In this document: piece by piece, positions 1,658 to 29,666 of the stretch | How positions within the stretch are numbered: the first letter of the stretch is position 1 | Layout: every line of letters begins with the position of its first letter | Virus record (IMG/VR): IMGVR_UViG_2695420874_000005 | From: a virus | Lineage: Duplodnaviria > Heunggongvirae > Uroviricota > Caudoviricetes | DNA length: 29,666 nt | Strand: one strand, 5' to 3' | Notes under the pieces: model-generated | What the model was told of the DNA's origin: nothing | The model's input: only the letters and a program-made list of their open reading frames with translations | Database searches by the model: none | Made by a program: the position numbers and the translations under genes

Positions 1658-4009
1658 TTAACCGTCATGCATCATGCTGGCACGGGCGCGCGCACGTTTA
1701 TCCCGCTCGTATTTTTCGAGCGCATCCTGTAACTGGCGGTCAAGCTGTGTCCCCGGCGCAGTACCACCCGTCAGGTTGATGTGATATTCGTTTTTACTCT
1801 GGTCCACATAAGAGCGGCCAGCCGGTGCCGTAACCGGCTGATAAGCCTGATAGCCTGCATAAGAGCTGGTCGCCGGAATATAACCACCGGTGCCATACGT
1901 GGCGGCATGAGTTCTGGCTGCGGTCTGGTCAAGTGTGTCTGACTCTTTGTTGATAACACCGAGTTTTTCCAGTACCCAGTCAATACCGCTGCGCAGTTTG
2001 TTGAACGCATTAAGCGGTAGCATCAACGCGTCAGCCAGTGCCTGCCCGAACATGACGCCCGTGTCACGGCAACGGTTCAGGGTGTCCTGTGTGGCTTTGA
2101 CCGGGGCAATCAGGTTTTTAAACCACTGCCACGCGGCCTGTAACTTTTCGCCCAGCCAGTCAAACACCGGCTTAAGTGGCGTGAACAGTTCCCCCACCGG
2201 CGCAAATGCCGCTTTCAGCCCTTCAACCACACCGCCAAAGAATGCGCTGACAGGCTCCCAGTATTTACGGATAAGCAACGTCCCGGCGACAATGGCAGCC
2301 ACCACGGCCACAACCGGCCAGCTAATCGCCCCGATGGCGGTCATAACAGCACTGCCAACCGTCGTGAAGATTGCCCCCATTGCGCCTGCTGCCGCGATGA
2401 TGGCATTGATGCCGGTGATAACCGGCCAGGCTACAAGACCAATGGCACCGATGATGCCAATAAGCGCCAGCGCGCCACCGACAATGAGGCCGATGGTTGA
2501 CGCCAGTGATTTGTTTTTCTGGATCCAGCCGTCGAGTTTTAACACATACTTTGTGGCCGTCTGAGTGAGCTTACGCAGTGCGCCTTCCTGCTGGTCAAAC
2601 AGGTCTGTCCCCACCGCCTCATAAGCGGACTGAAACTCCTTAAAGTCACCGCCGAGGTTATCCTGCATGATTTTAACCAGCTCTTCCGTTTTACCGTCCG
2701 AGGCTTTCAGCGTGGCGGTCAGCTTATCCAGCTTTCCGCTTGCAGCCGCTGCCAGTAAAACGTTCGCTGATTTCAGGGCTTCCTCACCAAAAATGGTTTT
2801 AAGGTATTCCCCCTTCTGAGACGTTCCCAGCTTGTGTTTATCAAAGCTGGCCTGAATCTCTTTCAGAATGGTGAACAACGGACGCATATTTCCCTTTTTG
2901 TCCGAGGTTTTAACGCCAAGCTCTTTGAGTGCTTCCCATGCTTTCCCTGTCGGAGCCTGTAATCGGGTGACAACGGCACTACTACCAGTACCCGCCATTG
3001 ACCCCCTGATGTTATTGTCATGCAGCACACCGGTCATGGCTGCTGCCTGCTCAAGACTTACACCTGCCGTTCTTGCGACCGGGCCAAGATAAGTCAGTGC
3101 ATCACTGAGTCCCTGAAAATCAGCCGCCGACTTATTCATCGTTGCCGACAACACATCGCCCACATGGCTGACATCATCATTTGACAGTTGAAAAGATGCT
3201 TTAGTCCCCAGCAACAGTTGCGCGTTTTCTTCCATCGACCGCTGATTCGCCAGTGCCATATTCAGCGTGACCGGCGTTGCCGCCTGAATAGCCGCAGCAT
3301 CTCCACCCGCTTTCGCAATGATAATCTGTGCACCGGCTGCATCATCTGCCGAGGCTGCGGTATTGTCGCCGAGCTGGCGCGCCTGTTTGCGTAGCGCGGC
3401 CATTTCGGCGGAGTCTTTTGCGACACCGAGCACAGCCTGCAATTCTGAGTTTTTCTGCGCAAACTCATAACCGGGCATCAGCAGCTTAACACCGGCCATC
3501 GTTCCCGCAGCAGCAATCCCCACACCGGCAGCGCCCACTGAGGCCATATTTCCGGCCAGTTCCTTTCCGGCCTGATAACGCTGTTTTACTGCGTTAAGTT
3601 TTGCCTGTTGCGCACTGACACGCGCCAGCGCGTCACGCTGCCGGTTAAGCTGTACGGTGGTTTCACTGATACGGTTTTTCAGCCCTCGTTCATCATGCGC
3701 CAGATTACGGGTATTAATACCCGCCTGACTCAGTTCCTGACGCTGGCGCTGTACCGACAATCTCAGGCTGTTATATTTCGCCTGTAACTCCGACACATTT
3801 TTACGCGCGGCTTCCATTGCCTTTGCCTGTGCATTTGTTGGTCGTTCAGTATTTTTAAACTGGACAGCCAGTGCTGCGGCTTCCTGTCTGGCTTTTTTCA
3901 GTTCCTGACCAGTCACGGCGAGCTGTGCACTGGTCTTGCGGAACCCCTCAATACGGGATGCCTGGTCAACAGCCCTGAGCAATACCTGTAATTTTACATT
4001 GTTACTCAT
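1658..4009 (-). CDS. T: tail tape measure protein (P2 gpT-like), 783 aa
   Basis: Long Ala/Gly/Gln-rich coiled-coil-like protein with a C-terminal hydrophobic/Gly-rich segment; follows E/E' as in P2. Confidence 0.9.
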   Translation of the reverse strand: MSNNVKLQVLLRAVDQASRIEGFRKTSAQLAVTGQELKKARQEAAALAVQFKNTERPTNAQAKAMEAARKNVSELQAKYNSLRLSVQRQRQELSQAGINTRNLAHDERGLKNRISETTVQLNRQRDALARVSAQQAKLNAVKQRYQAGKELAGNMASVGAAGVGIAAAGTMAGVKLLMPGYEFAQKNSELQAVLGVAKDSAEMAALRKQARQLGDNTAASADDAAGAQIIIAKAGGDAAAIQAATPVTLNMALANQRSMEENAQLLLGTKASFQLSNDDVSHVGDVLSATMNKSAADFQGLSDALTYLGPVARTAGVSLEQAAAMTGVLHDNNIRGSMAGTGSSAVVTRLQAPTGKAWEALKELGVKTSDKKGNMRPLFTILKEIQASFDKHKLGTSQKGEYLKTIFGEEALKSANVLLAAAASGKLDKLTATLKASDGKTEELVKIMQDNLGGDFKEFQSAYEAVGTDLFDQQEGALRKLTQTATKYVLKLDGWIQKNKSLASTIGLIVGGALALIGIIGAIGLVAWPVITGINAIIAAAGAMGAIFTTVGSAVMTAIGAISWPVVAVVAAIVAGTLLIRKYWEPVSAFFGGVVEGLKAAFAPVGELFTPLKPVFDWLGEKLQAAWQWFKNLIAPVKATQDTLNRCRDTGVMFGQALADALMLPLNAFNKLRSGIDWVLEKLGVINKESDTLDQTAARTHAATYGTGGYIPATSSYAGYQAYQPVTAPAGRSYVDQSKNEYHINLTGGTAPGTQLDRQLQDALEKYERDKRARARASMMHDG

Positions 4010-4429
4010 TCGTGTTTCCGCTTCGCCGGAGCGCCTTTTCGCGCCATGTGATGAGTTCGGTCAGGCTCATGGGATACAGTTCTGATGGCGGCCAGTGAAA
4101 TATCACTGCCACATCCGCCATCAGGTCATCGACCGAGAGATTTTTCGGAAACGTCACTGCACCGAGTTCGGCGACAAAAAACCGACCACCTTACCGGCCA
4201 GCGCCACAAGGTCAGGCAGTTCCAGCGCGGCGACCTCCTGCTCGGTCAGCATCGGTGCCGTCATGCGCGGCAGCACTTTAATCAGTGCATCGACTTCGGA
4301 GTTTGCGACCGCAGCCAGACTGACACCGCGCAGCGTCCCGGCATTGGGTTTCATCAGCGTGACCTGTTCGATAACCTGTTCACCACGTTTAACCGGATTA
4401 TCCAGGGTAATGACGTTTTCTTTGTTCAT
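4002..4429 (-). CDS. E': E+E' fusion product made by programmed -1 frameshift (about 142 aa)
   Basis: Minus-strand heptamer TTTTTTG (plus 4175-4181) inside E; the -1 frame stays open for 57 codons to TAA at 4002-4004, overlapping the T start; predicted fusion length about 142 aa as in P2 E+E'. Confidence 0.7.
4154..4429 (-). CDS. E: tail assembly chaperone E (P2 gpE-like), 91 aa
   Basis: 91-aa ORF ending ...GKVVGFLSPNSVQ; contains T6G slippery heptamer near its 3' end; lies between FII and T. Confidence 0.85.
   Translation of the reverse strand: MNKENVITLDNPVKRGEQVIEQVTLMKPNAGTLRGVSLAAVANSEVDALIKVLPRMTAPMLTEQEVAALELPDLVALAGKVVGFLSPNSVQ
4175..4181 (-). other. -1 ribosomal frameshift slippery site T6G
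   Basis: TTTTTTG read on minus strand, in-frame as TTT TTG (Phe-Leu) of E. Confidence 0.7.
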
Positions 4430-4485
4430 GGTTTTCTCACTTCTGAATCGGGGTTAACCGGTCAGCCAGGCTGACCGGATGAAAA

Positions 4486-5004
4486 TCACAGGCCGATATT
4501 GCGGCGGTGTTGCTCCAGCCGGTCGACGCCGTTCACCTTCTCAATCATGTTGATGGTGTCGATTTCGACCAGCTCCTTACCGTCCATCGTCAGCCGGAAA
4601 TAGGTGCAGACCACGGAGATTTTCGACTCGGTGTCTTCTCCCTGTTTACCCTCGCCGGTGTCGATTTCTTTCTGACGGCCACGCATGACCACCTCGACGG
4701 CCACCGTTTCGCCGGTATCGTCGCGCTGGTAAGAGCCTGCAAAACGAATCGGTACGGCATCCACACCGGTTGCGGCGTAAAGCTCCCAGATAACCGAATC
4801 CGGGAAGCCCCCGAGCGACCACTCCATTGACAGCGCATCGTCATCAAGGCCGAGGTCTATCGGTGCGCTGCCGTTCATCCCCGCACCGCGATAGTTTTCG
4901 AGCTTACGGGTCAGTTTTGGCAGCGTGACGGACTTTGCAACGCCCTGATAGCTGTAGCCGTTCAGAAAGACGTTCATTAACTTGAGTTTGCGCGGCATTG
5001 CCAT
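4486..5004 (-). CDS. FII: tail tube protein (P2 gpFII-like), 172 aa
   Basis: 172-aa ORF directly downstream of the sheath gene; length as P2 FII. Confidence 0.9.
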   Translation of the reverse strand: MAMPRKLKLMNVFLNGYSYQGVAKSVTLPKLTRKLENYRGAGMNGSAPIDLGLDDDALSMEWSLGGFPDSVIWELYAATGVDAVPIRFAGSYQRDDTGETVAVEVVMRGRQKEIDTGEGKQGEDTESKISVVCTYFRLTMDGKELVEIDTINMIEKVNGVDRLEQHRRNIGL

Positions 5005-6483: not shown

Positions 6484-7086
6484 CTACGCCTCCGGCAGTT
6501 CAGGCCAGATAACATCAGGCGCGGTGCTGGTATCTGTTGCCGTCACAGCGTCAATGTAATCCAGCACAGCGTTAAGCCGGGTTGTTTCTGCCTGCGTCAG
6601 TTTCCGCCCGGCCTGTAATTTCAGCTGAATCAGACTAATGGAAGCCATTGCTGCATCAGTCAGTGACTGGCGCTGTGCTTCTGCTGCATCTACTGCGGCG
6701 CTATGCTGTGCCTCGGTATCCGTCACCCATTTCTCACCATCCCATTTATCGTATGGCGTTGACGGGGCGATAGTGGTTGCATTTTCAGGGTAATCACCCG
6801 GAGTTTTGATTTCTTTTGATTCACCTGTTTCGGTGCTATAGACAATTTCACCACGATGGTCTGACACATATTCCCATGATTTTAAATCCATAGAACGGCA
6901 GATAGCATAACCCGCCTTATATGTGCCAGGAGCATCTAAACAGGAATATGCCGGGATACCGACACCAACGGCAAGATATTCATTTGAAGTGGAAATATAT
7001 TCCCGTGTTTCACCATCATAGTTATAGACGGTAATATTCCCCGCCTTCGTGGCAATAAGTTCGCTATTTAATACGGCTTTATCCAT
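6484..7086 (-). CDS. G: tail fibre assembly chaperone (Tfa/gpG-like), 200 aa
   Basis: Directly downstream of and overlapping the tail fibre gene H stop (ATG/TAA overlap at 7084-7088); AT-richer than flanking genes. Confidence 0.8.
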   Translation of the reverse strand: MDKAVLNSELIATKAGNITVYNYDGETREYISTSNEYLAVGVGIPAYSCLDAPGTYKAGYAICRSMDLKSWEYVSDHRGEIVYSTETGESKEIKTPGDYPENATTIAPSTPYDKWDGEKWVTDTEAQHSAAVDAAEAQRQSLTDAAMASISLIQLKLQAGRKLTQAETTRLNAVLDYIDAVTATDTSTAPDVIWPELPEA

Positions 7087-8609
7087 TATGCAGCTCTCAC
7101 GATATAGTTAAATGCAATATTTCGTGGACGGGTTTCGCTCCCACCTGTGTTACCAATACTCCCTCGTGTATGTAGCGTTGGTGATGGAATCAGAGTTCCT
7201 CCGGCATCGGCAGCATCAAGCCCCCGGCCTTGCGTATATGCTCTTCTGAAGATTGTCGCCAGTTCCCATTCCTCTTTTGAATCATACCCATCGTTGGCAA
7301 CAACAATATGGCGGTGTTTTTCCAGCATCCCAGTCTGAATGCTCAATAAAGCACGTCCTGCATCAATACCACGCCCGTCATCCCATCCACGAATAAACTC
7401 ACCACGGAGATCAGGTAGTTTCCCTGATGGATATGCTGTAGCAAGATGGGGATATTTCACCTTATCAAAGGCAGCGCCGTTGCATTTCAGCCAGCCCGTT
7501 GGCGGGGTTGCGGAGGGCCACGGAACAGGTACACCAACAGGCAATGCAGAGCCTTCTCCCAAACCAAGATAATCAAGAACTCCCTGTGTGCTGGGCTTAC
7601 TAAGAATTGCACGACCAACACTTGTCAGTGCAGTTAACGCGGCACGATCTACCCCTGTAAAATAAGGGAGTTTATCTGCCGCTGTAGCAAGCCCTGCCAG
7701 AGCAGTGAGTATGGCGTTTGCCGGTTGTCTTCCATTAGCCAGGTCGTATGCAGCCTTTACCGCTTTTGGCGTTGCAGCCAGTGTTTCAGATGTGCTGTTG
7801 GTTGCACTACTGAGCTGAACAAGCCCTTTTTGCGTCGTGGTGGCGTTCTGGGCGGTATATTTCCCGTTAGCCAGGTCATACGCCGCCTTGACCGCTTTTG
7901 GCGTTGCAGCCAGTGTTTCAGACGTGCTGTTTGTGGCGCTACTGAGTTGAACAAGGCCTTTTCGTGCCGTAGTCGCATCCTGAGCGGTATATTTCCCGTT
8001 AGCCAGGTCATATGCAGCCTTTACCGCTTTCGGTGTTGCGGCCAGTGTTTCAGATGTACTGTTAGTTGCACTGCTTAACTGAGTAAAACCTTTTGCGGTC
8101 AGCGAGGCGTCCGGGTGGCGTCGTGACTGTTCGTGCTCAGAAATTTTGTCATCCACATATTTACGTGTTGCCAGTACCACAGCCGGGTCGATTTTCAGCG
8201 TGATGGCTTCGGTGTTCGTGACAACCAGAATCATGCGGATAGTCTGGGTACGACCACTGCCTTCCTGCAACTGCGGTTTGTACGTTTCCGGGCAGTTCGC
8301 CACCGCAATGAGTACGCCTTCATCATCATAAAGTCCAATCTCACGGATCCAGAATCCGCCCTCGTTTTCAGGGATGATTTGCTCCGCAATAATCTGGCTC
8401 TGATTGTTAGGGTCAACACTCAGAAGATTCAGCGGCGCGATGCGTTTCTGGTTAATCAGTTTTGTCTGTGCCGGGTCTGGTGTCGGCAAGACACCATTCG
8501 CATCACCAACGGCCATTTGCGTCAGATTCAGCTTACTGCCGAGCATCGTCGCGTTAGCCAGCCGTGCTGCGCCCTGATTAGTCAGAATGGCGTAGTATTT
8601 CACTGTCAT
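7086..8609 (-). CDS. H: tail fibre protein (P2 gpH-like N-terminus, collar-type C-terminal domain), 507 aa
   Basis: N-terminal region resembles P2 gpH (…EHEQSRRHPDASLTAKGFTQLSSATNSTSETLAATPKAVK…); three tandem 44-aa repeats; divergent C-terminal domain. Confidence 0.85.
   Translation of the reverse strand: MTVKYYAILTNQGAARLANATMLGSKLNLTQMAVGDANGVLPTPDPAQTKLINQKRIAPLNLLSVDPNNQSQIIAEQIIPENEGGFWIREIGLYDDEGVLIAVANCPETYKPQLQEGSGRTQTIRMILVVTNTEAITLKIDPAVVLATRKYVDDKISEHEQSRRHPDASLTAKGFTQLSSATNSTSETLAATPKAVKAAYDLANGKYTAQDATTARKGLVQLSSATNSTSETLAATPKAVKAAYDLANGKYTAQNATTTQKGLVQLSSATNSTSETLAATPKAVKAAYDLANGRQPANAILTALAGLATAADKLPYFTGVDRAALTALTSVGRAILSKPSTQGVLDYLGLGEGSALPVGVPVPWPSATPPTGWLKCNGAAFDKVKYPHLATAYPSGKLPDLRGEFIRGWDDGRGIDAGRALLSIQTGMLEKHRHIVVANDGYDSKEEWELATIFRRAYTQGRGLDAADAGGTLIPSPTLHTRGSIGNTGGSETRPRNIAFNYIVRAA
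7739..8100. repeat. three tandem copies of a 132-bp unit (third partial) inside H
   Basis: Unit starts (ccaggtc...) at 7739, 7871 and 8003; encodes repeated LSSATNSTSETLAATPKAVKAAYDLANGKYTAQ segments. Confidence 0.85.
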
Positions 8610-9217
8610 GCGTTTACTCTCAGGTTATCAATTAAATGAATGGCCGAGGCCGGGAAATAATCCCCTCCGACAATAATGGCCTCCGGGGTGTAGGGATAAA
8701 CCGTCAGGGCGTCGCCGTGATAGCATCCCGCACCGGCAAAAATGTTGCCGGTTGTACTTAAACTGATAGCCAGTCCCGTCAGATGGCGGCTTGCAGGTTT
8801 TGCATCAGCAACAAGACGCTCCAGCTCCTGATACATTTCTTCGGTAATACCCTGCTCAAGCACGCCAACAACGATACGGAACGTCCCCGGCTCCTCGTTG
8901 AGCTGCCACCACTCCCTCACCTCAATCAGATAGCCGAGCGGCTCCACCACACGCCGGATTGCACCTATAGTGCCTTTATGACAGTGAATGAAATACGCAT
9001 CGCGGATAACAGCGCGTTTTGTCGCTTCCGGCCACTTATCATCCCAGCGGTCAACCGAAAATGACCACGCCAGCCACGGCAGCAGATTTGCCGGGCAGGT
9101 GTCCGGGTTCCACAATTCACGAATACTGACCGGCGTTTTTTCAATTTCCGCACAGGCTTTTGCGGCGGCGACTTCAAGCGGTGATGAGCCGGTCGGCAGC
9201 AGGCGCGAATCACTCAT
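8606..9217 (-). CDS. I: baseplate assembly protein I (P2 gpI-like), 203 aa
   Basis: Starts MSDSRLLPTGSSPLEVAAAKACAEIEK as P2 gpI; overlaps J stop and H start. Confidence 0.85.
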   Translation of the reverse strand: MSDSRLLPTGSSPLEVAAAKACAEIEKTPVSIRELWNPDTCPANLLPWLAWSFSVDRWDDKWPEATKRAVIRDAYFIHCHKGTIGAIRRVVEPLGYLIEVREWWQLNEEPGTFRIVVGVLEQGITEEMYQELERLVADAKPASRHLTGLAISLSTTGNIFAGAGCYHGDALTVYPYTPEAIIVGGDYFPASAIHLIDNLRVNA

Positions 9218-10118
9218 CCGAGCCTCCGGTCACGACGCTGTATTCGGTGCAGAAAGACGCCTGCGTACTGTTGAGCACGATGTCAGCCAGAGGTGCAGTC
9301 AGTTCGACACGCTGCACGCCCTCCACATGCAAAGCGGCATAAATGGCAGACAGACGGATGTCGCGCCCAAGCCGGTGCTGTGCCGTGATGTACGCTTCCA
9401 GTTTTTTCACGGCAGCAGCGCGGATGGGTTCGCTTTCGGGACCAGGGTAAAGGTAAAGCGTGGCGTTTATCTGATATTCAACAATGGCGGCAGACTGCAC
9501 GGTCACGCGGTCGGCCACCGGCCTGACGTCCTCGCCATTAAGGGCGTTACGCACCACGGCCAGCAGGTCTTCGGATGCGACGCCGTTATTTTCACGTGAC
9601 AGCACAGAGATGGTGACGCAGGCCGGAGACGGACTGGTGACAGAGATATCCGCGACACGCCCGTCGGCACTGCGACCATGATACTGATAGGCACCCACCG
9701 ACCCGGCGACGCTTAAACCTTCAAACGCCTGCTGAATACGCAGACGATAATCGGTGTCAGACTCCATCACTGCCGGTGTCGGCGGGATGGTCGAATCATC
9801 TGCCGGGGTGATAGTCAGGCGCGTGGTGTTGTAATTGGCACCAATCACATCAAGGTCATTACCGGCAGCACAGGCCAGCATCACCGCCCGTGCGGCCTCA
9901 TTCACACGCTGACGCCAGATAAGCTCACGATAAGCATTTTCCTCCAGCAGTTTGACGAGAGGCTCGGATTCCAGCGTCAGGGTACGGGCGACCGCCTCCT
10001 GCTGGTCTTCCGGGTAAAGGGAAATCAGTGTCGCCTTGCGTTCGGCAAGAATGGTTTCAAAGTCCAGCTCTTCGACCACATCCGGTGCGGGTAGCTGGTT
10101 CAGGTCGATAATCGGCAT
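9210..10118 (-). CDS. J: baseplate wedge protein J (P2 gpJ-like), 302 aa
   Basis: 302 aa as P2 gpJ; between W and I. Confidence 0.9.
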   Translation of the reverse strand: MPIIDLNQLPAPDVVEELDFETILAERKATLISLYPEDQQEAVARTLTLESEPLVKLLEENAYRELIWRQRVNEAARAVMLACAAGNDLDVIGANYNTTRLTITPADDSTIPPTPAVMESDTDYRLRIQQAFEGLSVAGSVGAYQYHGRSADGRVADISVTSPSPACVTISVLSRENNGVASEDLLAVVRNALNGEDVRPVADRVTVQSAAIVEYQINATLYLYPGPESEPIRAAAVKKLEAYITAQHRLGRDIRLSAIYAALHVEGVQRVELTAPLADIVLNSTQASFCTEYSVVTGGSDE

Positions 10119-23281: not shown

Positions 23282-25576
23282 TCAAGCACCACAATCAAAA
23301 AAATCAACAGAAGGAAATCCAAGCCACTCATCAGCGACCTGATAAGTGAAATGTTTCCCGTCATAATTTACGGTTGCCCCACGCGCCAGCGCCTCAAGCT
23401 CCCATCGCTGCGGCCTGATACCGTTCTGAGCAAGGTCAACGCGGATACGGGTGATTTGCATTCTTTCCGACCGGGTCAGTCTGGCCGATGGTGCAATTTC
23501 ATGTGGTTTTAACGGGCTTCCGTTTCTTTGCTGACGGTTTGGCGTTCTCAGGTCGTATTTTAGTGCGCCCCTGAGCGCCCTCACGACCTCCGGTTCATTC
23601 CATTCAATAACACCGTCATCAACCAGATTAAGCACTGCTGCGGCGTGCTCAGAAGGTGTGGGAGCCGGTAACGAAGTATCACCACCGGTGAGCTTTCCAC
23701 AGTTATTGACAGGACTCCGAGGCGCGGCGATGCCGCTTTTTAAAGTCAAAGGCTCAACGACCGGAACTTTCGGCACAATGCGCCACTCCGTCGTTCTGGT
23801 GATATGAATATGACGCGCGCCGAGATGCGGTGCGTAAATGCCGACCACTCTCTCGACCTCTTCCTCGTACTCGTTAACGTCATCCGACGGGCTACGGGCG
23901 ACCCTGACAGTCTGACAATCGCGCGGGACATTTGCCCCACCCTGCGCGCGGATATACAACGCAAAATCACCACTGTCTGCGGCGGCGCGTGCAGCCTCGA
24001 CGCGCTCGTCAAACTCATCAGCAATGCTGACGCCGCGAGGCAATTTGCGTAGTTCACGGTAAGCCCCCATTGTCGGCAGGCCAACCGTTTTAAATTGTGG
24101 TATGCGCCACGTTGACGCCCATGCGGTAACAGCCGCCGCTGTGTCTTTCAGCGGCCTGCCGGTATCGTTATCGAGCTGACCATCCAGTGCATAGCCATCG
24201 ATGTTTTTTGAGATGTATTTCGCGATATATCCCGCAGCACCGCCCCGGTTAAGGTGTTTTGCCTGAAAACGGTTTCGCGCGGCTCCTCTTTCGTCACCAT
24301 CCTCTTTGAGCGCATAGCGACGCATGATTTCGATAATCTGGTTACGCTGGCGTGGATTACAAAAAAGCATCATATGCCAGTGCGGCGTTCCGTCGTGGTG
24401 TGGCTCGACGACACGCAAACCGTAGACCTGTAAATCATTATCCTTGAATGCCGTGCGCATCAGGCTCCAGATACGGCAGAGATAACGCTGCGCATCCTTT
24501 GGATTAAATGCCTCATCATTCCAGCCGTGATTAAGCTGGACGGTTTTTCTTTCGCCTTTTCCGACCTGACGTGTCGGGTGATACTTTGACGGCGCGGTCA
24601 GCGTGATAAACATCCCCACATCACCCTCTGCGGCGGCGTAACGCTCAATACCGGCAATGGTGTTCATCAGCTCCATCCGGCGAATTTCAGGATTAGAAAT
24701 ACTGCCCATCACCTTACTGATAAGGTCGATGCGTTCGCCGGTTTCCCTGTTTTCAAGGTCACACGATTTAAGAAATTCCAGATTTGCCTGGCGGCGCGCA
24801 CGCACATCACGAATGGCGTGTTTACTGGCATAAGGAGAACGGTCTTTATTGACCTCCCCGACAGCTATCAGTAACGCTTCATGCCAGCGCATACGCTGGC
24901 CTTTAAGCTGACTAATCCACCACTCATCGTTAAACAGACGGGCAATGGCAGAATATGCCTGCCTCGTGGTCATCTGTCCTTTACGGTATTTTTTCCAGTA
25001 GAGAGGGGAAATATTGAAAGCACGTGCAGCGCCAGCAACATGACCATAGAGGTGAGCCTGCGCCTCATCCGTAAACAGCGATTCTTTTTCGCCATGCGCA
25101 TCCACCCAGGCATCGCAGAGTTCCTCATACATCATGAAAAGCTGCGATGAAATACGGGCGGCAAACTTTTTCAGCTCCTTATCATTCATCCCCGGCAGAC
25201 GCGCATAATGGTCACGCTCTGCCAGAAACAGCAACGACGCGTCGGTGTTCATTTCATGGCGCTGATTCACGCGCTCAATGCGCGGCCATAAACGACGCTG
25301 AAAAGTGGATGTGAGGAAATAAAACCCGTGCACCGGGCTTTTATTGCGCCGGATGTAGTCATAGCGTGAAGTAAACAGCGAACGCAAAAAGTAAGGCAGG
25401 CGGTTAATCGTGGATAAAACACCTTGCACCTGACGCATCTCGTCACGTGTAAGGGGTCTTTCGCGCCCGACGGCCTCGCGTGGCGCGTTCCATGCATAAG
25501 CACCGGTAAACGCCTTACCGGTGCCTGCAGCAAATGCTGAAGGAGGGACAAAACGCCCGGAGGCTTTAACGGCCAT
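23282..25576 (-). CDS. A: replication initiation endonuclease (P2 gpA-like rolling-circle initiator), 764 aa
   Basis: Start at MAVKASGRFVPP (ATG 25576); long match to P2 gpA as recalled; the TTG start at 25618 in the ORF track is rejected. Confidence 0.9.
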   Translation of the reverse strand: MAVKASGRFVPPSAFAAGTGKAFTGAYAWNAPREAVGRERPLTRDEMRQVQGVLSTINRLPYFLRSLFTSRYDYIRRNKSPVHGFYFLTSTFQRRLWPRIERVNQRHEMNTDASLLFLAERDHYARLPGMNDKELKKFAARISSQLFMMYEELCDAWVDAHGEKESLFTDEAQAHLYGHVAGAARAFNISPLYWKKYRKGQMTTRQAYSAIARLFNDEWWISQLKGQRMRWHEALLIAVGEVNKDRSPYASKHAIRDVRARRQANLEFLKSCDLENRETGERIDLISKVMGSISNPEIRRMELMNTIAGIERYAAAEGDVGMFITLTAPSKYHPTRQVGKGERKTVQLNHGWNDEAFNPKDAQRYLCRIWSLMRTAFKDNDLQVYGLRVVEPHHDGTPHWHMMLFCNPRQRNQIIEIMRRYALKEDGDERGAARNRFQAKHLNRGGAAGYIAKYISKNIDGYALDGQLDNDTGRPLKDTAAAVTAWASTWRIPQFKTVGLPTMGAYRELRKLPRGVSIADEFDERVEAARAAADSGDFALYIRAQGGANVPRDCQTVRVARSPSDDVNEYEEEVERVVGIYAPHLGARHIHITRTTEWRIVPKVPVVEPLTLKSGIAAPRSPVNNCGKLTGGDTSLPAPTPSEHAAAVLNLVDDGVIEWNEPEVVRALRGALKYDLRTPNRQQRNGSPLKPHEIAPSARLTRSERMQITRIRVDLAQNGIRPQRWELEALARGATVNYDGKHFTYQVADEWLGFPSVDFFDCGA

Positions 25577-25841
25577 ATGAGCCAAAAGCCTCTGAACAAC
25601 GCCTGCTGAGTTGCTCAACCTGCGCGTTTAAATCAGCAAAAGACTTTGCGCTTCCGGTCAGAATATCGTGATGCATCAGGCCGGAAACGAGCTGGCTTAA
25701 TTTCGGATAATAACCAACCACCGCCAGCCATTCCTGACCGGCGTTTTTACCGCTTTCCGCTCTCTTTTTCTCGTGGAGAATAAACTGAAAGCTGTCACTG
25801 GTAACGACATAACGTTCGCCAATTTCAATACGAATACTCAT
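25566..25841 (-). CDS. small early protein (P2 orf83-like), 91 aa
   Basis: ATG with SD GGAGAA; overlaps the upstream gene stop (ATGA); sits in the early operon just before A. Confidence 0.6.
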   Translation of the reverse strand: MSIRIEIGERYVVTSDSFQFILHEKKRAESGKNAGQEWLAVVGYYPKLSQLVSGLMHHDILTGSAKSFADLNAQVEQLSRRCSEAFGSYGR

Positions 25842-26651: not shown

Positions 26652-27152
26652 TTAATGCAGATATTGCTCTGGTTTTACCGACGTCAGAATTGTCGGTGCA
26701 TACTCAAACAGGCTGAATAATTCACGTAATGCACGGAATAAAGCATCACGCCAGTAACATGACTCTTCATTAATTCGCCAGTATGGCTGATTAAATTCTT
26801 TTTCTGTCAATCCGGCGTGCATAAATAAAGTACGACGCTGACTGACTGTTAAAAAACTAATATATGCATGCTCACTTGCGCCAACCTGACGGCGTTTTGA
26901 GAATGCGCCACGCAATTCATCAATTGCACATACCAGTCGTTCACGTTCGACGTCGTTCATTTCTTCAAAACGCATCGTTGCGTGACGCTGTTTTAACTGT
27001 GCATGAAAGCAAACCGTTAGCCGTTCGCGCTCCATCATCTGATTATAATAATCACATGTATCCTGCCAGCGAGGGACGGCAAGATGCTTGCCAATTATCC
27101 GGCGCATAGCTGCTGGCTGTTTTTCAACGAGATTGAGCGTCATCACTGTCAT
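26652..27152 (-). CDS. B: replication protein B (P2 gpB-like), 166 aa
   Basis: 166 aa as P2 gpB; position in early operon. Confidence 0.8.
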   Translation of the reverse strand: MTVMTLNLVEKQPAAMRRIIGKHLAVPRWQDTCDYYNQMMERERLTVCFHAQLKQRHATMRFEEMNDVERERLVCAIDELRGAFSKRRQVGASEHAYISFLTVSQRRTLFMHAGLTEKEFNQPYWRINEESCYWRDALFRALRELFSLFEYAPTILTSVKPEQYLH

Positions 27153-27319
27153 TTCCAGACCCTCCGGCTTTTCAGAAAGGTCAGAGCCTTCTTTAACGGA
27201 CTCTGTTTTTTGGTGCGGATAATGATTCCCTTGCGTCCCTTCCCGTGGGTGATGGTGAAGTCAATCGCCCTGGGGCTTTCGTTACGCAATAACTGAGCAA
27301 TACAACGAGGTTCCTGCAT
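27149..27319 (-). CDS. small early protein (P2 orf78-like), 56 aa
   Basis: ATG 27319 preceded by AGGAGGAG; overlaps B start. Confidence 0.5.
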   Translation of the reverse strand: MQEPRCIAQLLRNESPRAIDFTITHGKGRKGIIIRTKKQSPLKKALTFLKSRRVWK

Positions 27320-27436
27320 AACTCCTCCTGAAACAGAGCCGGTTTTTAGCCATGTCCGGCGCATGGTCTTGTGGTACTATCCAATTGCTTTCACTCCAAA
27401 TGTAAGCAAGTAGTTCGTAACACAAGGAATAACGAC

Positions 27437-27613
27437 ATGAATGATTTAGAAAAAACCAAGTTTCTTTTTGAGCAGACCTGTTCAGTCATTGGCGGAGCAC
27501 TTACTGAACAATCAGTAATGCCTGTTCCTGTAGAAACCCGAGCTTCACGCTTATTTGATGCTATCTATCCAGTTCTTGAGAAAAAACTCGAAGAAAAACT
27601 CGCGAAAAAATAG
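27437..27613 (+). CDS. small hypothetical protein, 58 aa, antisense to the early operon
   Basis: ATG 27437 with SD AAGGAA 8 nt upstream; Lys/Glu-rich C-terminus (EKKLEEKLAKK). Confidence 0.4.
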   Translation: MNDLEKTKFLFEQTCSVIGGALTEQSVMPVPVETRASRLFDAIYPVLEKKLEEKLAKK

Positions 27614-27616
27614 GCA

Positions 27617-27805
27617 TTACTCGCACTGGTGAATAAAGTCCAGTACGCCAGCGATAACGCTGATATCTTTGCCGGACACCTGTTTATCTAAGCGTCCGGC
27701 CTCTTCTTTGATGAAATCCCCGATTTTTACCGCCAGTTCTAAAATTTCTCTCTGCGTCAGTGCCTTATCTGTGCCGCACTGGTTCGTACTATTTTTGTTC
27801 GCCAT
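27617..27805 (-). CDS. small hypothetical protein, 62 aa
   Basis: ATG 27805 with SD AAGGGGAA; convergent with the 58-aa plus-strand ORF. Confidence 0.45.
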   Translation of the reverse strand: MANKNSTNQCGTDKALTQREILELAVKIGDFIKEEAGRLDKQVSGKDISVIAGVLDFIHQCE

Positions 27806-27859
27806 GATGTTCCCCTTATGCCGTCCGCCCTGTTGCTGACAGCCTGATTTAGCAATGAT

Positions 27860-28132
27860 TTAAAGCCCCATCCACAGCAGCCACGCGTCCCGCTGTTCTA
27901 TCGGTCGGTTGTAGAATGCCTCACGCACACCACGATTGAACTCAGGAATGAAAACCAGTTTGTCTCCTGCACGAGCATTCGGCTTAGTTGGATCGCGAAA
28001 TTCAACTACCGGCAACTTGTTAGCTTTGATCATTTCAACGACCGCAGTACGCGGTTTTCCGAGCAATTCTGCAAACTTGTCAGGGTGTACCGCATCAATC
28101 GGATACTTAACCACATAGTTGTTTGCGTCCAT
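27860..28132 (-). CDS. cox: Cox-like excisionase/transcriptional regulator, 90 aa
   Basis: C-terminus ...YNRPIEQRDAWLLWMGL resembles P2 Cox (…RDGWLMWLGL); ATG 28132 with GAGAGG upstream; divergent from C. Confidence 0.8.
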   Translation of the reverse strand: MDANNYVVKYPIDAVHPDKFAELLGKPRTAVVEMIKANKLPVVEFRDPTKPNARAGDKLVFIPEFNRGVREAFYNRPIEQRDAWLLWMGL

Positions 28133-28279
28133 AAAACACACCTCTCGTGCTAATCTTATCCGTCCAGCCCTCTTAAAACCGCTCAGGATCGTTCCTGACT
28201 GGCTGGACTCACGCCCCAAAAGGTTTCCGAACAAGTACCTTTTGAGGGGAATATAGTCTCCATAGGGGAACCATGTCAA
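28133..28279. promoter_or_regulatory. lysis-lysogeny switch region (Pe/Pc promoters and operators) between cox and C
   Basis: 147-bp divergent intergenic region; contains dyad CCCCAAAAGGT-N12-ACCTTTTGAGGGG (28214-28249) and candidate -10 TATAGT (28252-28257). Confidence 0.5.
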
Positions 28280-28573
28280 ATGAAAATATCGGAGAAACTT
28301 CGCGCTATTCGCAAGGCCGAGGGATTAACACAAAAAAAATTTTGCGAGCTTAGTGGATTAGCACTTAGTTCGTTGAAAAATTATGAAGGTGGACATAAAG
28401 AGCCAGGACTACAAATCGTAAAGCAAGTAGTCAACACACCGCTGTTTAAAAAATATACATTATGGATTATGACAGATGAGATTGCGCCAGAATCCGGGCA
28501 GATTTCCCCGGTCGTCGCACACTCTGGGCCAGAAGAAACAACATCGTCACACTCAGGCCGCAAAACTGGCTAA
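28280..28573 (+). CDS. C: immunity repressor (P2 C-like, HTH), 97 aa
   Basis: HTH N-terminus; C-terminus ...PESGQISPVVAHSGPEETTSSHSGRKTG close to P2 C as recalled; SD GGGGAA upstream. Confidence 0.85.
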   Translation: MKISEKLRAIRKAEGLTQKKFCELSGLALSSLKNYEGGHKEPGLQIVKQVVNTPLFKKYTLWIMTDEIAPESGQISPVVAHSGPEETTSSHSGRKTG

Positions 28574-28685: not shown

Positions 28686-29666
28686 ATGAGTATCAGAAAG
28701 CTCGATGATGGACGTTATGAAGTGGATATCAGGCCTCGCGGTCGCGATGGAAAACGCATCCGCAGGAAATTTGAAAGAAAAGCTGAAGCGGTAGCATTTG
28801 AGCGATACACAATCGTCAATGCCAGTCAGAAAGAATGGGGAGGCCAGCGAGCAGACCGCCGAACTTTGACAGAATTGCTCGACATCTGGTGGAAATACCA
28901 CGGGCAAAACCACGAGCATGGGACAAAAGAGTTTAATCATCTGCTCAAAACCATCAGCGGCATAGGTGATATACCAGTGAGTCGGATGAACAAAAGGGCT
29001 TTGATGGATTATCGCTCCATGCGACTACGTGATGGCATCAGTGCTGCAACGATAAACCGCGACATGTACCGATTATCCGGCATGTTCACAAAATTAATTC
29101 AATTGGATGAATTTTCCGGGCAACACCCAATTCACGGACTGCCGCCACTGACGGAGGCTAACCCTGAAATGACGTTCCTGGAAAAAGCAGAAATCGAAAA
29201 ACTGCTAAATGTTTTGACTGGTGATGACTTACTTGTCGCGCTTTTATGTCTGAGCACTGGAGGAAGATGGACGGAAGTTGCCACGCTAAAACCAGCACAG
29301 ATTACAAGTTGCAGGGTTACCTTCCTGAAAACCAAAAACGGTAAAAAGCGAACAGTGCCGATTTCTGAGGAACTGGAGAAAAAAGTTAAAGAGGAGGCCA
29401 GCGCCAAATTGTTCAAGGTAGATTATGAGAAGTTTTGCGGGATTTTACGCAGAGTGAAACCTGATATACCTCCCAATCAGGCAACCCACATTCTGCGGCA
29501 TACATTCGCAAGCCATTTCATGATGAATGGGGGCAACATAATTGCACTGCAACAGATTCTGGGGCATGCGAGCATTCAGCAGACAATGACCTATGCGCAC
29601 CTTGCGCCTGACTACCTGCAGAACGCCGTCGCTCTGAATCCACTAAAAGGCGGAGTGACGTTATAA
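28686..29666 (+). CDS. int: tyrosine integrase (P2 Int-like), 326 aa
   Basis: Start MSIRKLDDGRYEVDIRPRGRDGKRIRRKF (P2 Int-like) at ATG 28686 after GGGGGG; C-terminal ...HxLRHTFASHF...YAH catalytic motifs; the ORF-track upstream extension is rejected. Confidence 0.9.
   Translation: MSIRKLDDGRYEVDIRPRGRDGKRIRRKFERKAEAVAFERYTIVNASQKEWGGQRADRRTLTELLDIWWKYHGQNHEHGTKEFNHLLKTISGIGDIPVSRMNKRALMDYRSMRLRDGISAATINRDMYRLSGMFTKLIQLDEFSGQHPIHGLPPLTEANPEMTFLEKAEIEKLLNVLTGDDLLVALLCLSTGGRWTEVATLKPAQITSCRVTFLKTKNGKKRTVPISEELEKKVKEEASAKLFKVDYEKFCGILRRVKPDIPPNQATHILRHTFASHFMMNGGNIIALQQILGHASIQQTMTYAHLAPDYLQNAVALNPLKGGVTL

Follow-up and report, generated by a model that had tools for sequence, protein, structure and literature searches.

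P2 is the textbook non-inducible temperate phage. Its switch sets the repressor C against Cox, with face-to-face promoters and with cox as the first early gene. Transcriptional interference between convergent promoters is known from the P2/186 switch (Pe-Pc; pR-pL), and phage 186 also has the CII-activated promoter pE. The known cargo sites of P2 are old/tin and Z/fun. Here we describe a pair of small convergent open reading frames (ORFs), ORF58 and ORF62, located directly behind the C/Cox switch of a natural P2-like (Peduovirus) prophage. The DNA analysed was the IMG/VR record IMGVR_UViG_2695420874_000005, a stretch of 29,666 nucleotides, called the window from here on. All coordinates refer to the window, whose right end is the regulatory region of the prophage.

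Several described prophage elements are close to this arrangement. Loci that are antisense to lytic genes and have their own promoter are typical prophage accessory loci, among them STMMW_20121 of ST64B (PMC7067206). The OOP RNA of lambda, opposite cII, and OOP of BTP1 are short antisense RNAs (PMC7067206). STnc6030 of BTP1 is a prophage antisense RNA acting on phage transcripts, in superinfection exclusion (PMC7067206).

By their conservation and synteny, ORF58 and ORF62 are a convergent two-gene accessory module of P2-like (Peduoviridae) prophages in Enterobacterales. With middling confidence, we read ORF58 as a unit that is transcribed independently of Pe and against the early operon, and that would interfere with the early genes downstream. 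If the unit is active in lysogens, early transcription must cross an opposing unit on its way to cox or the replication genes, and the module would then be a candidate for adjusting spontaneous induction and the stability of lysogens. With an inactive unit, only two more hypothetical small phage genes would be left. The analysis also defines two orphan families of phage proteins of about 60 residues.

The module resembles morons and loci of the STMMW_20121 type, being inserted between genes that are adjacent in P2, opposite to the lytic operon, and in a minority of prophages. As in morons, ORF58 would have a promoter and a terminator of its own, according to the predicted signals. Unlike morons, the module is placed inside the early operon, by the immunity switch, and not at the usual P2 cargo sites. 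ORF58 is furthermore tied to a specific convergent early gene that carries its predicted terminator, and the G + C content differs only slightly. A terminator within the coding sequence of the convergent partner, and a position between Pe and cox in many relatives, would be unusual for a moron or an antisense unit.

Similar to OOP, the ORF58 transcript would be short, with its own predicted promoter and terminator. It would converge on the early operon and overlap a small early gene at the 3' end, so that a duplex could form and be cleaved. In contrast to OOP, a 77-nt non-coding RNA, it is predicted to be ~320 nt long and codes for a protein under strong purifying selection, and no sequence or Rfam similarity was found between OOP and the ORF58 region. 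As with STnc6030, the ORF58 transcript would be antisense to lytic genes and could act in trans on the transcripts of an incoming related phage, but STnc6030 is non-coding and antisense to late genes, while the ORF58 mRNA encodes a protein and runs opposite to the early operon. As in the P2/186 switch, the predicted ORF58 promoter faces the early lytic promoter and head-on polymerase traffic would be expected. It is nevertheless outside the canonical switch, on the downstream side of Pe and several hundred bp away (~890 bp in the window). Unlike transcripts from 186 pE, the ORF58 transcript is predicted to end inside ORF62, without reaching C and int, and no CII homologue was found.

The module and its coding status

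The module takes up 540 bp (27320-27859), from the start of the orf78-like gene to the cox stop. In P2 only 10 bp separate the cox stop from the orf78 start, and in the junction alignment the homology between P2 and the window restarts at about codon 3 of orf78. The 540 bp are thus an extra segment, absent from P2. The segment contains ORF62 (62 aa, 27617-27805, minus strand) and ORF58 (58 aa, 27437-27613, plus strand). ORF58 starts at a conserved ATG (27437) and has the Shine-Dalgarno sequence AAGGA (27424-27428) 8 nt ahead of it. An in-frame GTG at 27371 is used as start neither by homologues nor by the Prokaryotic Genome Annotation Pipeline, and was discarded. The Shine-Dalgarno sequence of ORF62 is AAGGGGAA, the complement of 27810-27817. 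The ORF58 stop codon TAG (27611-27613) and the ORF62 stop codon (27617-27619) are separated by positions 27614-27616. An initial annotation, made from the DNA letters and their ORFs, had stated that P2 has no genes at this spot, that both ORFs have good Shine-Dalgarno sequences and stops 3 bp apart, and that the plus-strand gene opposes the early operon; all of this agrees with our results. It did not mention that the pair is an old conserved module, that many relatives have it between C and cox, or that the predicted ORF58 terminator is inside ORF62.

The module is rare and undescribed. The 540-bp segment was found in 60 of 5426 complete Escherichia coli genomes, compared with 1669 for the flanking segment from orf78 to B. 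Among 50,697 phage records, only the Yersinia phages vB_YpM_115 and vB_YpM_117 had it. An identical segment adjoins cpxP in E. coli strain 746. RefSeq lists the ORF58 and ORF62 products as the hypothetical proteins WP_000998639.1 and WP_001284599.1; no paper in the literature search mentioned either accession, the HQ103 paper is silent on both genes, and a term search of the paper by Nilsson on P2-like regulatory regions gave no match. The G + C content is 0.38-0.42 across ORF58 and 0.47-0.53 in the flanking windows, and other early genes dip equally low.

By their substitution pattern, ORF58 and ORF62 are genuine coding genes. The proportion of nonsynonymous differences (pN) was far below that of synonymous differences (pS) in every pairwise comparison, for both genes. 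For ORF58, pS was 0.40-0.94 and pN 0.09-0.43 (seven lineages, 45-88% protein identity). The ratio of nonsynonymous to synonymous substitution rates (dN/dS; unsaturated dS only) was mostly 0.11-0.26 for ORF58, and 0.53 against its most distant homologue. For ORF62 it was 0.17-0.35. Start codons and Shine-Dalgarno sites were conserved, and the frames remained open at 37-60% identity. Both proteins had full-length matches to PHROGs without an assigned function, ORF58 to phrog_14615 (E 8e-45) and ORF62 to phrog_12968 (E 1.4e-47). The purifying selection, and the conservation in related prophages, are what the initial annotation had proposed to look for.

A non-coding spacer, in which the two ORFs are open by chance or are artefacts of annotation, is barely credible. 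They are short (58 and 62 codons), are annotated as hypothetical only, and have no domain matches. The depletion of nonsynonymous changes across many lineages, the open frames, the conserved starts and Shine-Dalgarno sites and the full-length PHROG matches all speak against chance. As far as sequence analysis reaches, the substitution pattern refutes this idea.

A profile search of 1.8 billion representative proteins recovered about 15 small relatives of ORF58, with 56-72 aa. A word-indexed search gave 33 clusters at 90% identity, and all named sources were Enterobacterales. The family motif is M-x-x-EEK-x-x-FLF-x-QTC ... FD-x-x-Y-x-x-LE-x-KL-x-EKL. Its N-terminal helix (EEKxxFLFxQTC) and its C-terminal helix (FDxxYxxLExKLxEKL) are invariant, and the loop joining them varies. 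The AlphaFold2 (AF2) model of ORF58, with a predicted local distance difference test score (pLDDT) of 86, shows two antiparallel helices (residues 3-24 and 32-57) forming a two-helix hairpin. Two database variants of ORF58, P0003 and P0004, have an out-of-frame tail after VLEK. The tails fit a 1-nt change in the A6 run of GAGAAAAAACTC (A-runs at 27581-27592), which could be a sequencing error or slippage.

ORF62 has a variable, disordered N-terminus and a conserved core, LTPxE..LA....F....A....K..SG.D. In its AF2 model (pLDDT 74), the disordered N-terminus is followed by two helices, and the core is a hairpin shaped like a helix-turn-helix.

In searches of Pfam, NCBIfam and PADLOC with ORF58, ORF62 and distant members, no match reached the family cutoff and only weak sub-threshold ones appeared. 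ORF58 had no relatives in these databases or in the PDB, and neither protein matched a toxin, antitoxin or defence family there. No Foldseek match of the AF2 models in the PDB had an E value under 1. Profiles run against PDB sequences returned noise only, the top matches of the ORF62 profile being L18, designed repeat proteins and similar. A superficial likeness of ORF58 to ColE1 Rop, suggested by the N-terminus MTKEEK..., was dropped: Rop was missing from the Foldseek list, and the ORF58 family has a long variable loop.

Placement and partners in related prophages

We compared the window with fetched loci, designated here by L numbers. In every one of them except L023/L047, the ORF58-family gene belonged to a P2-like early region and had the orientation of C and int. 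L023/L047 were set aside as spurious, having 33% identity and the structural-gene context of an unrelated virus. A tail-to-tail ORF62-family gene, with gaps of +4 to -18 nt, was the near-universal convergent neighbour. The pair was found in E. coli, Enterobacter, Salmonella, Dickeya, Trabulsiella, Kluyvera and in viral contigs, and in 15 loci an ORF58-like gene converged with a distant homologue of ORF62. A profile scan of genome contigs gave no locus with the alignment of close relatives, and 3 loci with a broader alignment.

Two placements were recognized. In the window, L002, L003, L007, L008 and L024 the module comes after cox (C > < cox < ORF62 ORF58 > < early genes). In ten relatives (L026-L031, L033, L038, L042 and L045) it is between C and cox (C > < ORF62-like ORF58-like > < cox), and between Pe and cox. 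The position of Pe was scanned in two loci, the window and L026; in L026 the Pe consensus abuts the C start, and the first early gene is the ORF62-like gene, not cox. The window cox is 88% identical to that of L026, showing that closely related switches hold the module on either side of cox.

In a few lineages the partner was exchanged. The ORF58-like gene faces an unrelated gene of 132-134 aa in L011/L013, and an unrelated 103-aa gene in L022/L032, where orf78 and B are missing to the left. The 132-134-aa gene holds the ORF62 position in L011 (5194-5592), L013 (996-1400) and L012 (884-1217); in L012 it is split into ORFs of 43 and 70 aa, and the length of its Ala-Ser repeat varies.

The viral contig L021 has a recombinant module. 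Its ORF62 (3179-3367, minus strand) is of the window type up to ...SVIAGV and then of the L007 type (IDFLSYDE), and its ORF58 is of the L007 type. The recombination joint is in ORF62, near the 3' end, by the conserved SGKDIS..IAGV block.

These partner changes bear on two rival explanations. In the first, ORF58 is an ordinary lysogenic-conversion moron acting on the host or on other phages (e.g., in superinfection exclusion or defence), and ORF62 is merely a small early gene. The two would have no functional tie to each other or to early transcription, and the tail-to-tail packing would be genome economy. We regard this as possible but doubtful. ORF58 has promoter and terminator signals of its own (predicted), is retained where unrelated genes replace ORF62, and has slightly lower G + C than its surroundings; the L021 joint is inside ORF62; the minority of E. 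coli genomes with the segment is as expected for accessory cargo; and in L028 a second plus-strand gene was inserted alongside. On the other hand, the pairing survives down to ~20-30% identity of ORF62 (~37-50% for ORF58) and a relocation about cox, a linkage that exceeds what unrelated cargo usually shows. The module is also always within a few hundred bp of the C/Pe switch, away from old/tin and Z/fun, and PADLOC gave no matches.

In the second rival explanation, the pair is a poison and its antidote: ORF62, made solely upon firing of Pe, would harm or reprogram the host, and ORF58, made in the lysogen, would neutralize leaky ORF62 by way of the protein, of the antisense 3' end, or of the two together. 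It would account for the conserved convergent pair with overlapping 3' ends: given termination at the predicted site, the final ~90 nt of the putative ORF58 mRNA would be antisense to ORF62 in its 3' half. The two predicted helical hairpins could pack as a four-helix bundle, and the genes would be expressed in opposite regimes, one in the early operon and the other from its own promoter.

Two small adjacent genes are indeed also typical of type I and type II toxin-antitoxin systems, and the convergent overlap resembles some type I loci; the RNA that would overlap ORF62 is itself a conserved mRNA. However, being convergent, the genes do not share a transcript, unlike type II pairs, and the searches brought up no homology to toxin, antitoxin or defence families. 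No obvious long hydrophobic run was seen in ORF58 or ORF62, unlike in type I toxins, although this was judged by eye and no hydropathy or transmembrane prediction was run. The partner is dispensable in some lineages (L011/L013, L022/L032). Without co-transcription, family homology and strict co-occurrence, the pair does not behave as a type II system. A toxin-antitoxin-like pair, one of the suggestions of the initial annotation, is therefore not supported, and we consider the poison-antidote explanation decidedly unlikely.

Predicted transcription of ORF58 against the early operon

The early promoter Pe (TTGACA-18-TATATT, 28279-28250, minus strand) was located by promoter scan. It abuts the C start codon and has the same position as the annotated Pe of P2. 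Pe would drive cox, ORF62, the antisense strand of ORF58, orf78 and B. ORF62 is on the cox strand, downstream of Pe, as expected of a P2 early-operon gene, and the stretch 27000-28400 yielded no terminator-like site on the minus strand. ORF62 would thus be a small early gene transcribed from Pe, after cox.

ORF58, tail-to-tail with ORF62 and oriented like the C repressor and integrase genes, looks like an autonomous monocistronic transcription unit. Its putative parts would be an extended -10 element without a good -35, a 5' stem-loop, the 58-codon ORF and a terminator in ORF62.

The predicted extended -10 element, TGgTACTAT, is at 27372-27380 (plus strand), with the predicted start site near 27387. 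Eleven lineages had a TGnTAnnnT element in this relative position, 41-77 nt ahead of the ATG. In a larger lineage set, the extended -10 was present in all except L045, which had TATTTA.

A predicted stem-loop (27385-27409, plus strand) would form the 5' end of the ORF58 mRNA. A few nt at most separate such stem-loops from the predicted start site, and their stem sequences are unrelated between lineages. Folding each sequence singly and comparing it with shuffles, we obtained z-scores of -2.2 or lower in 11 of 17 lineages, down to -5.8, with the strongest signals in L024, L033, L042, L046 and L031. L029 had no 5' hairpin. RNAalifold found no consensus in a small alignment of the 5' untranslated regions, as these sequences do not align.

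The predicted intrinsic terminator of the ORF58 transcript (27671-27709, plus strand) is inside the coding sequence of ORF62. It consists of the hairpin GCCGGAC...GUCCGGC (27671-27700), followed by CUCUUCUUU. Its z-score was -2.0 in the window, and -3 to -5.6 in L007, L008, L003, L026 and L024. In a scan of 20 loci, 15 had a plus-strand hairpin with a U-tract 41-59 nt beyond the ORF58 stop, within the partner coding sequence. In the remaining five, including the window, the top hairpin with a U-tract was 9-28 nt past the stop. The terminator call in the window is based on the folding of 27671-27700 and on the homology with L002, L007 and L008. The stems are lineage-specific, for example GCCAGAGAGG/CCCUCUGGC in L026 and GGCCAGAAAUA/UAUUUCUGGCC in L024, and the hairpins have free energies (ΔG) of -10 to -20 kcal/mol. 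On the minus strand of that region, most loci had a weaker hairpin with a U-tract, and four had none. Where the partner was exchanged (L011, L022/L032), a terminator-like hairpin directly followed the stop of the ORF58-like gene. Another candidate at 27649-27662 (plus strand; CAGCGATAACGCTG then ATATCTTTGC) is part of the top match of the window in the 20-locus scan. It was not conserved in relatives, and the conserved hairpin at 27671-27700 was preferred.

The hairpin arms are at the same time the codons for the conserved A-G/R and S-G at the ORF62 turn. Among five diverged ORF62 genes, 17 degenerate codons were invariant in their amino acid. Only four of these were invariant as codons, and three of the four are in the hairpin arms. 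This points to a nucleotide-level constraint on top of the protein constraint. The locus would be a clean natural case of a predicted intrinsic terminator that is part of a convergent gene and co-evolves with its coding sequence.

Two other regulatory roles were considered for the ORF58 promoter. As an alternative promoter for C and int, similar to 186 pE, it is disfavoured by the predicted terminator after ORF58 in nearly all lineages. Control by C was also rejected. The direct repeats TTCCCCT(C/A), 19 bp apart on the minus strand (28244-28251 and 28263-28270), are placed on both sides of the Pe -10 and occur at Pe only, not by the ORF58 promoter. These repeats resemble the O1/O2 layout of the P2 C operators, and they are probably the C operator of this phage. 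From their absence at the ORF58 promoter we infer that the latter would fire independently of Pe, also in the lysogen.

The RNA polymerases started at the ORF58 promoter and at Pe would then collide head-on, and the predicted ORF58 mRNA, of ~320 nt, would be complementary to the Pe transcript over its whole length. ORF58 transcription and this antisense mRNA would brake or insulate the early genes beyond the unit, which are orf78, B and A in the window. In relatives with the module between C and cox, cox itself would be braked. Strong firing of Pe would in turn shut ORF58 off. Given the purifying selection on both products, the proteins should matter besides transcription; as a weak guess, ORF58 may bind and counteract ORF62 or another early or host factor. 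A small regulator, which the initial annotation also named, is conceivable. A moron interfering with early transcription, another of its suggestions, fits the anatomy best, with its predicted promoter, stem-loop and terminator and its insertion into the operon. The support for a moron-like unit directed against the early operon is architectural.

Several observations weigh against this interpretation. A stricter sigma-70 scan for -35/-10 pairs gave no promoter upstream of ORF58, because no good -35 is present. The 5' stem-loop of the window clade folded no better than shuffles (z about -0.2 to -0.7). The terminator hairpin of the window has a 16-nt loop and a mediocre U-tract, and was outranked by a different hairpin at +9 in the 20-locus scan. 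The strong purifying selection on ORF58 makes a purely RNA or interference role insufficient, while the lineages that keep ORF58 without ORF62, together with the L021 recombinant, argue against an obligate pairing of the proteins. By residue count, ORF58 is neutral and ORF62 has a net charge of about -2, which does not suggest nucleic-acid binding. No characterized protein in the databases searched resembled ORF58 or ORF62 in sequence or fold.

A more elaborate and unlikely reading makes the module a convergent micro-switch behind Pe, as an extra layer of the lysis-lysogeny circuit of the P2 family. ORF58, expressed in the lysogen, would gate the Pe transcription that reaches cox (in the C-ORF62-ORF58-cox layout) or the replication genes (in the window layout). 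The gating would act by head-on interference, by the fully antisense mRNA, and possibly by the ORF58 protein. Early ORF62 and strong firing of Pe would flip ORF58 off. An inverted-repeat element upstream of ORF58, possibly a pseudoknot, would link the switch to the next early gene, through its translation or stability.

The inverted repeats and the neighbouring genes

The element just named consists of two overlapping inverted repeats (27340-27366), directly upstream of the extended -10 of ORF58. The first is formed by GCCGG (27340-27344) and CCGGC (27356-27360), the second by CCATG (27350-27354) and CATGG (27362-27366). CCATG-N7-CATGG is unique in the window and was found in 16 loci. The formal covariation count covered this second repeat only: 97.5% of the cells were paired across 16 lineages, and three of the five pairs had double changes, a covariation reached by none of 500 shuffles. 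The compensatory changes were CCACG/CGTGG, CCTG/CAGG and GCTGC/GCAGC. The GCCGG/CCGGC repeat could not be aligned in register, and its compensatory variants (GCCGT/ACGGC, CCGAT/ATCGG, GCCGGA/TCCGGC) were recognized by eye only.

On the minus strand, the element would have a first stem (S1) of 5 bp, a loop (L1) of 1 nt, a second stem (S2) of 5-6 bp and an A-rich loop (L3) of 7 nt. Such a geometry is that of a classical compact pseudoknot, as in the gene 32 leader of T2/T4. In the readable lineages, the element is 6-22 nt upstream of the Shine-Dalgarno sequence of the following early gene.

This raises the question whether an RNA or DNA structure at 27340-27366 is the main selected function, with the ORFs being secondary. 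The structure could be an H-type pseudoknot in the minus-strand early transcript, or a palindromic operator over the -35 and spacer of the ORF58 promoter. The covarying CCAYG/CRTGG helix and the compensatory variants of the GCCGG/CCGGC arms argue for a structure, as does the pseudoknot-like topology on the minus strand, close to the ribosome-binding site of the next early gene. However, only in L028 did nested folding of the minus strand surpass shuffles, and most of the signal there is due to the complement of the 5' stem-loop. Searches of 27100-28300 with Rfam covariance models gave no match at E of 1 or below. L033 and L042 are without the GCCGG repeat, no G-U pair identifies the strand, and a symmetric change of half-sites in a protein-bound palindrome would mimic covariation. 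With protein-level selection being clear on both ORFs, we find it very improbable that the structure comes first. ORF58 as a unit opposing the early operon is the reading we retain.

In L028, a Dickeya dadantii prophage, an extra plus-strand gene of 154 aa (4377-4841), with no Pfam match on record, directly precedes the inverted repeats and the ORF58-like promoter. Its presence suggests that more plus-strand cargo can be taken up at this spot, and that the repeat element may serve there as its terminator.

The module is flanked in the window by typical P2-like genes. To its right are cox (27860-28132, minus strand), the first early gene here, upstream of ORF62 and coding for a Cox-family DNA-binding protein (Pfam Phage_Cox, E 1e-22; also in RefSeq), followed by the C repressor gene (28280-28573, plus strand) and int (28687-29666, plus strand). 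To its left, the next early gene is the orf78-like gene (27149-27319, minus strand), recognized by homology to P2 orf78 and by phrog_273 (E 1.5e-40). It is followed on the same strand by a B-like gene (26652-27152) and by further early genes, up to A (23282-25618).

The early region is mosaic in some of the prophages with the module between C and cox. L029 and L030 (3444-4203) encode 186-type early genes (Phage_186_Fil, DUF4761, TerB) behind a P2-type C/Cox switch. The window prophage and those of L026-L030 are all inserted beside cpxP/cpxRA (L001 5552-6601; L026-L030 about 7000-9900). The integrases of L026-L030 are only ~29-43% identical to that of the window, and the insertion locus thus appears to be shared despite the divergence of the integrases.

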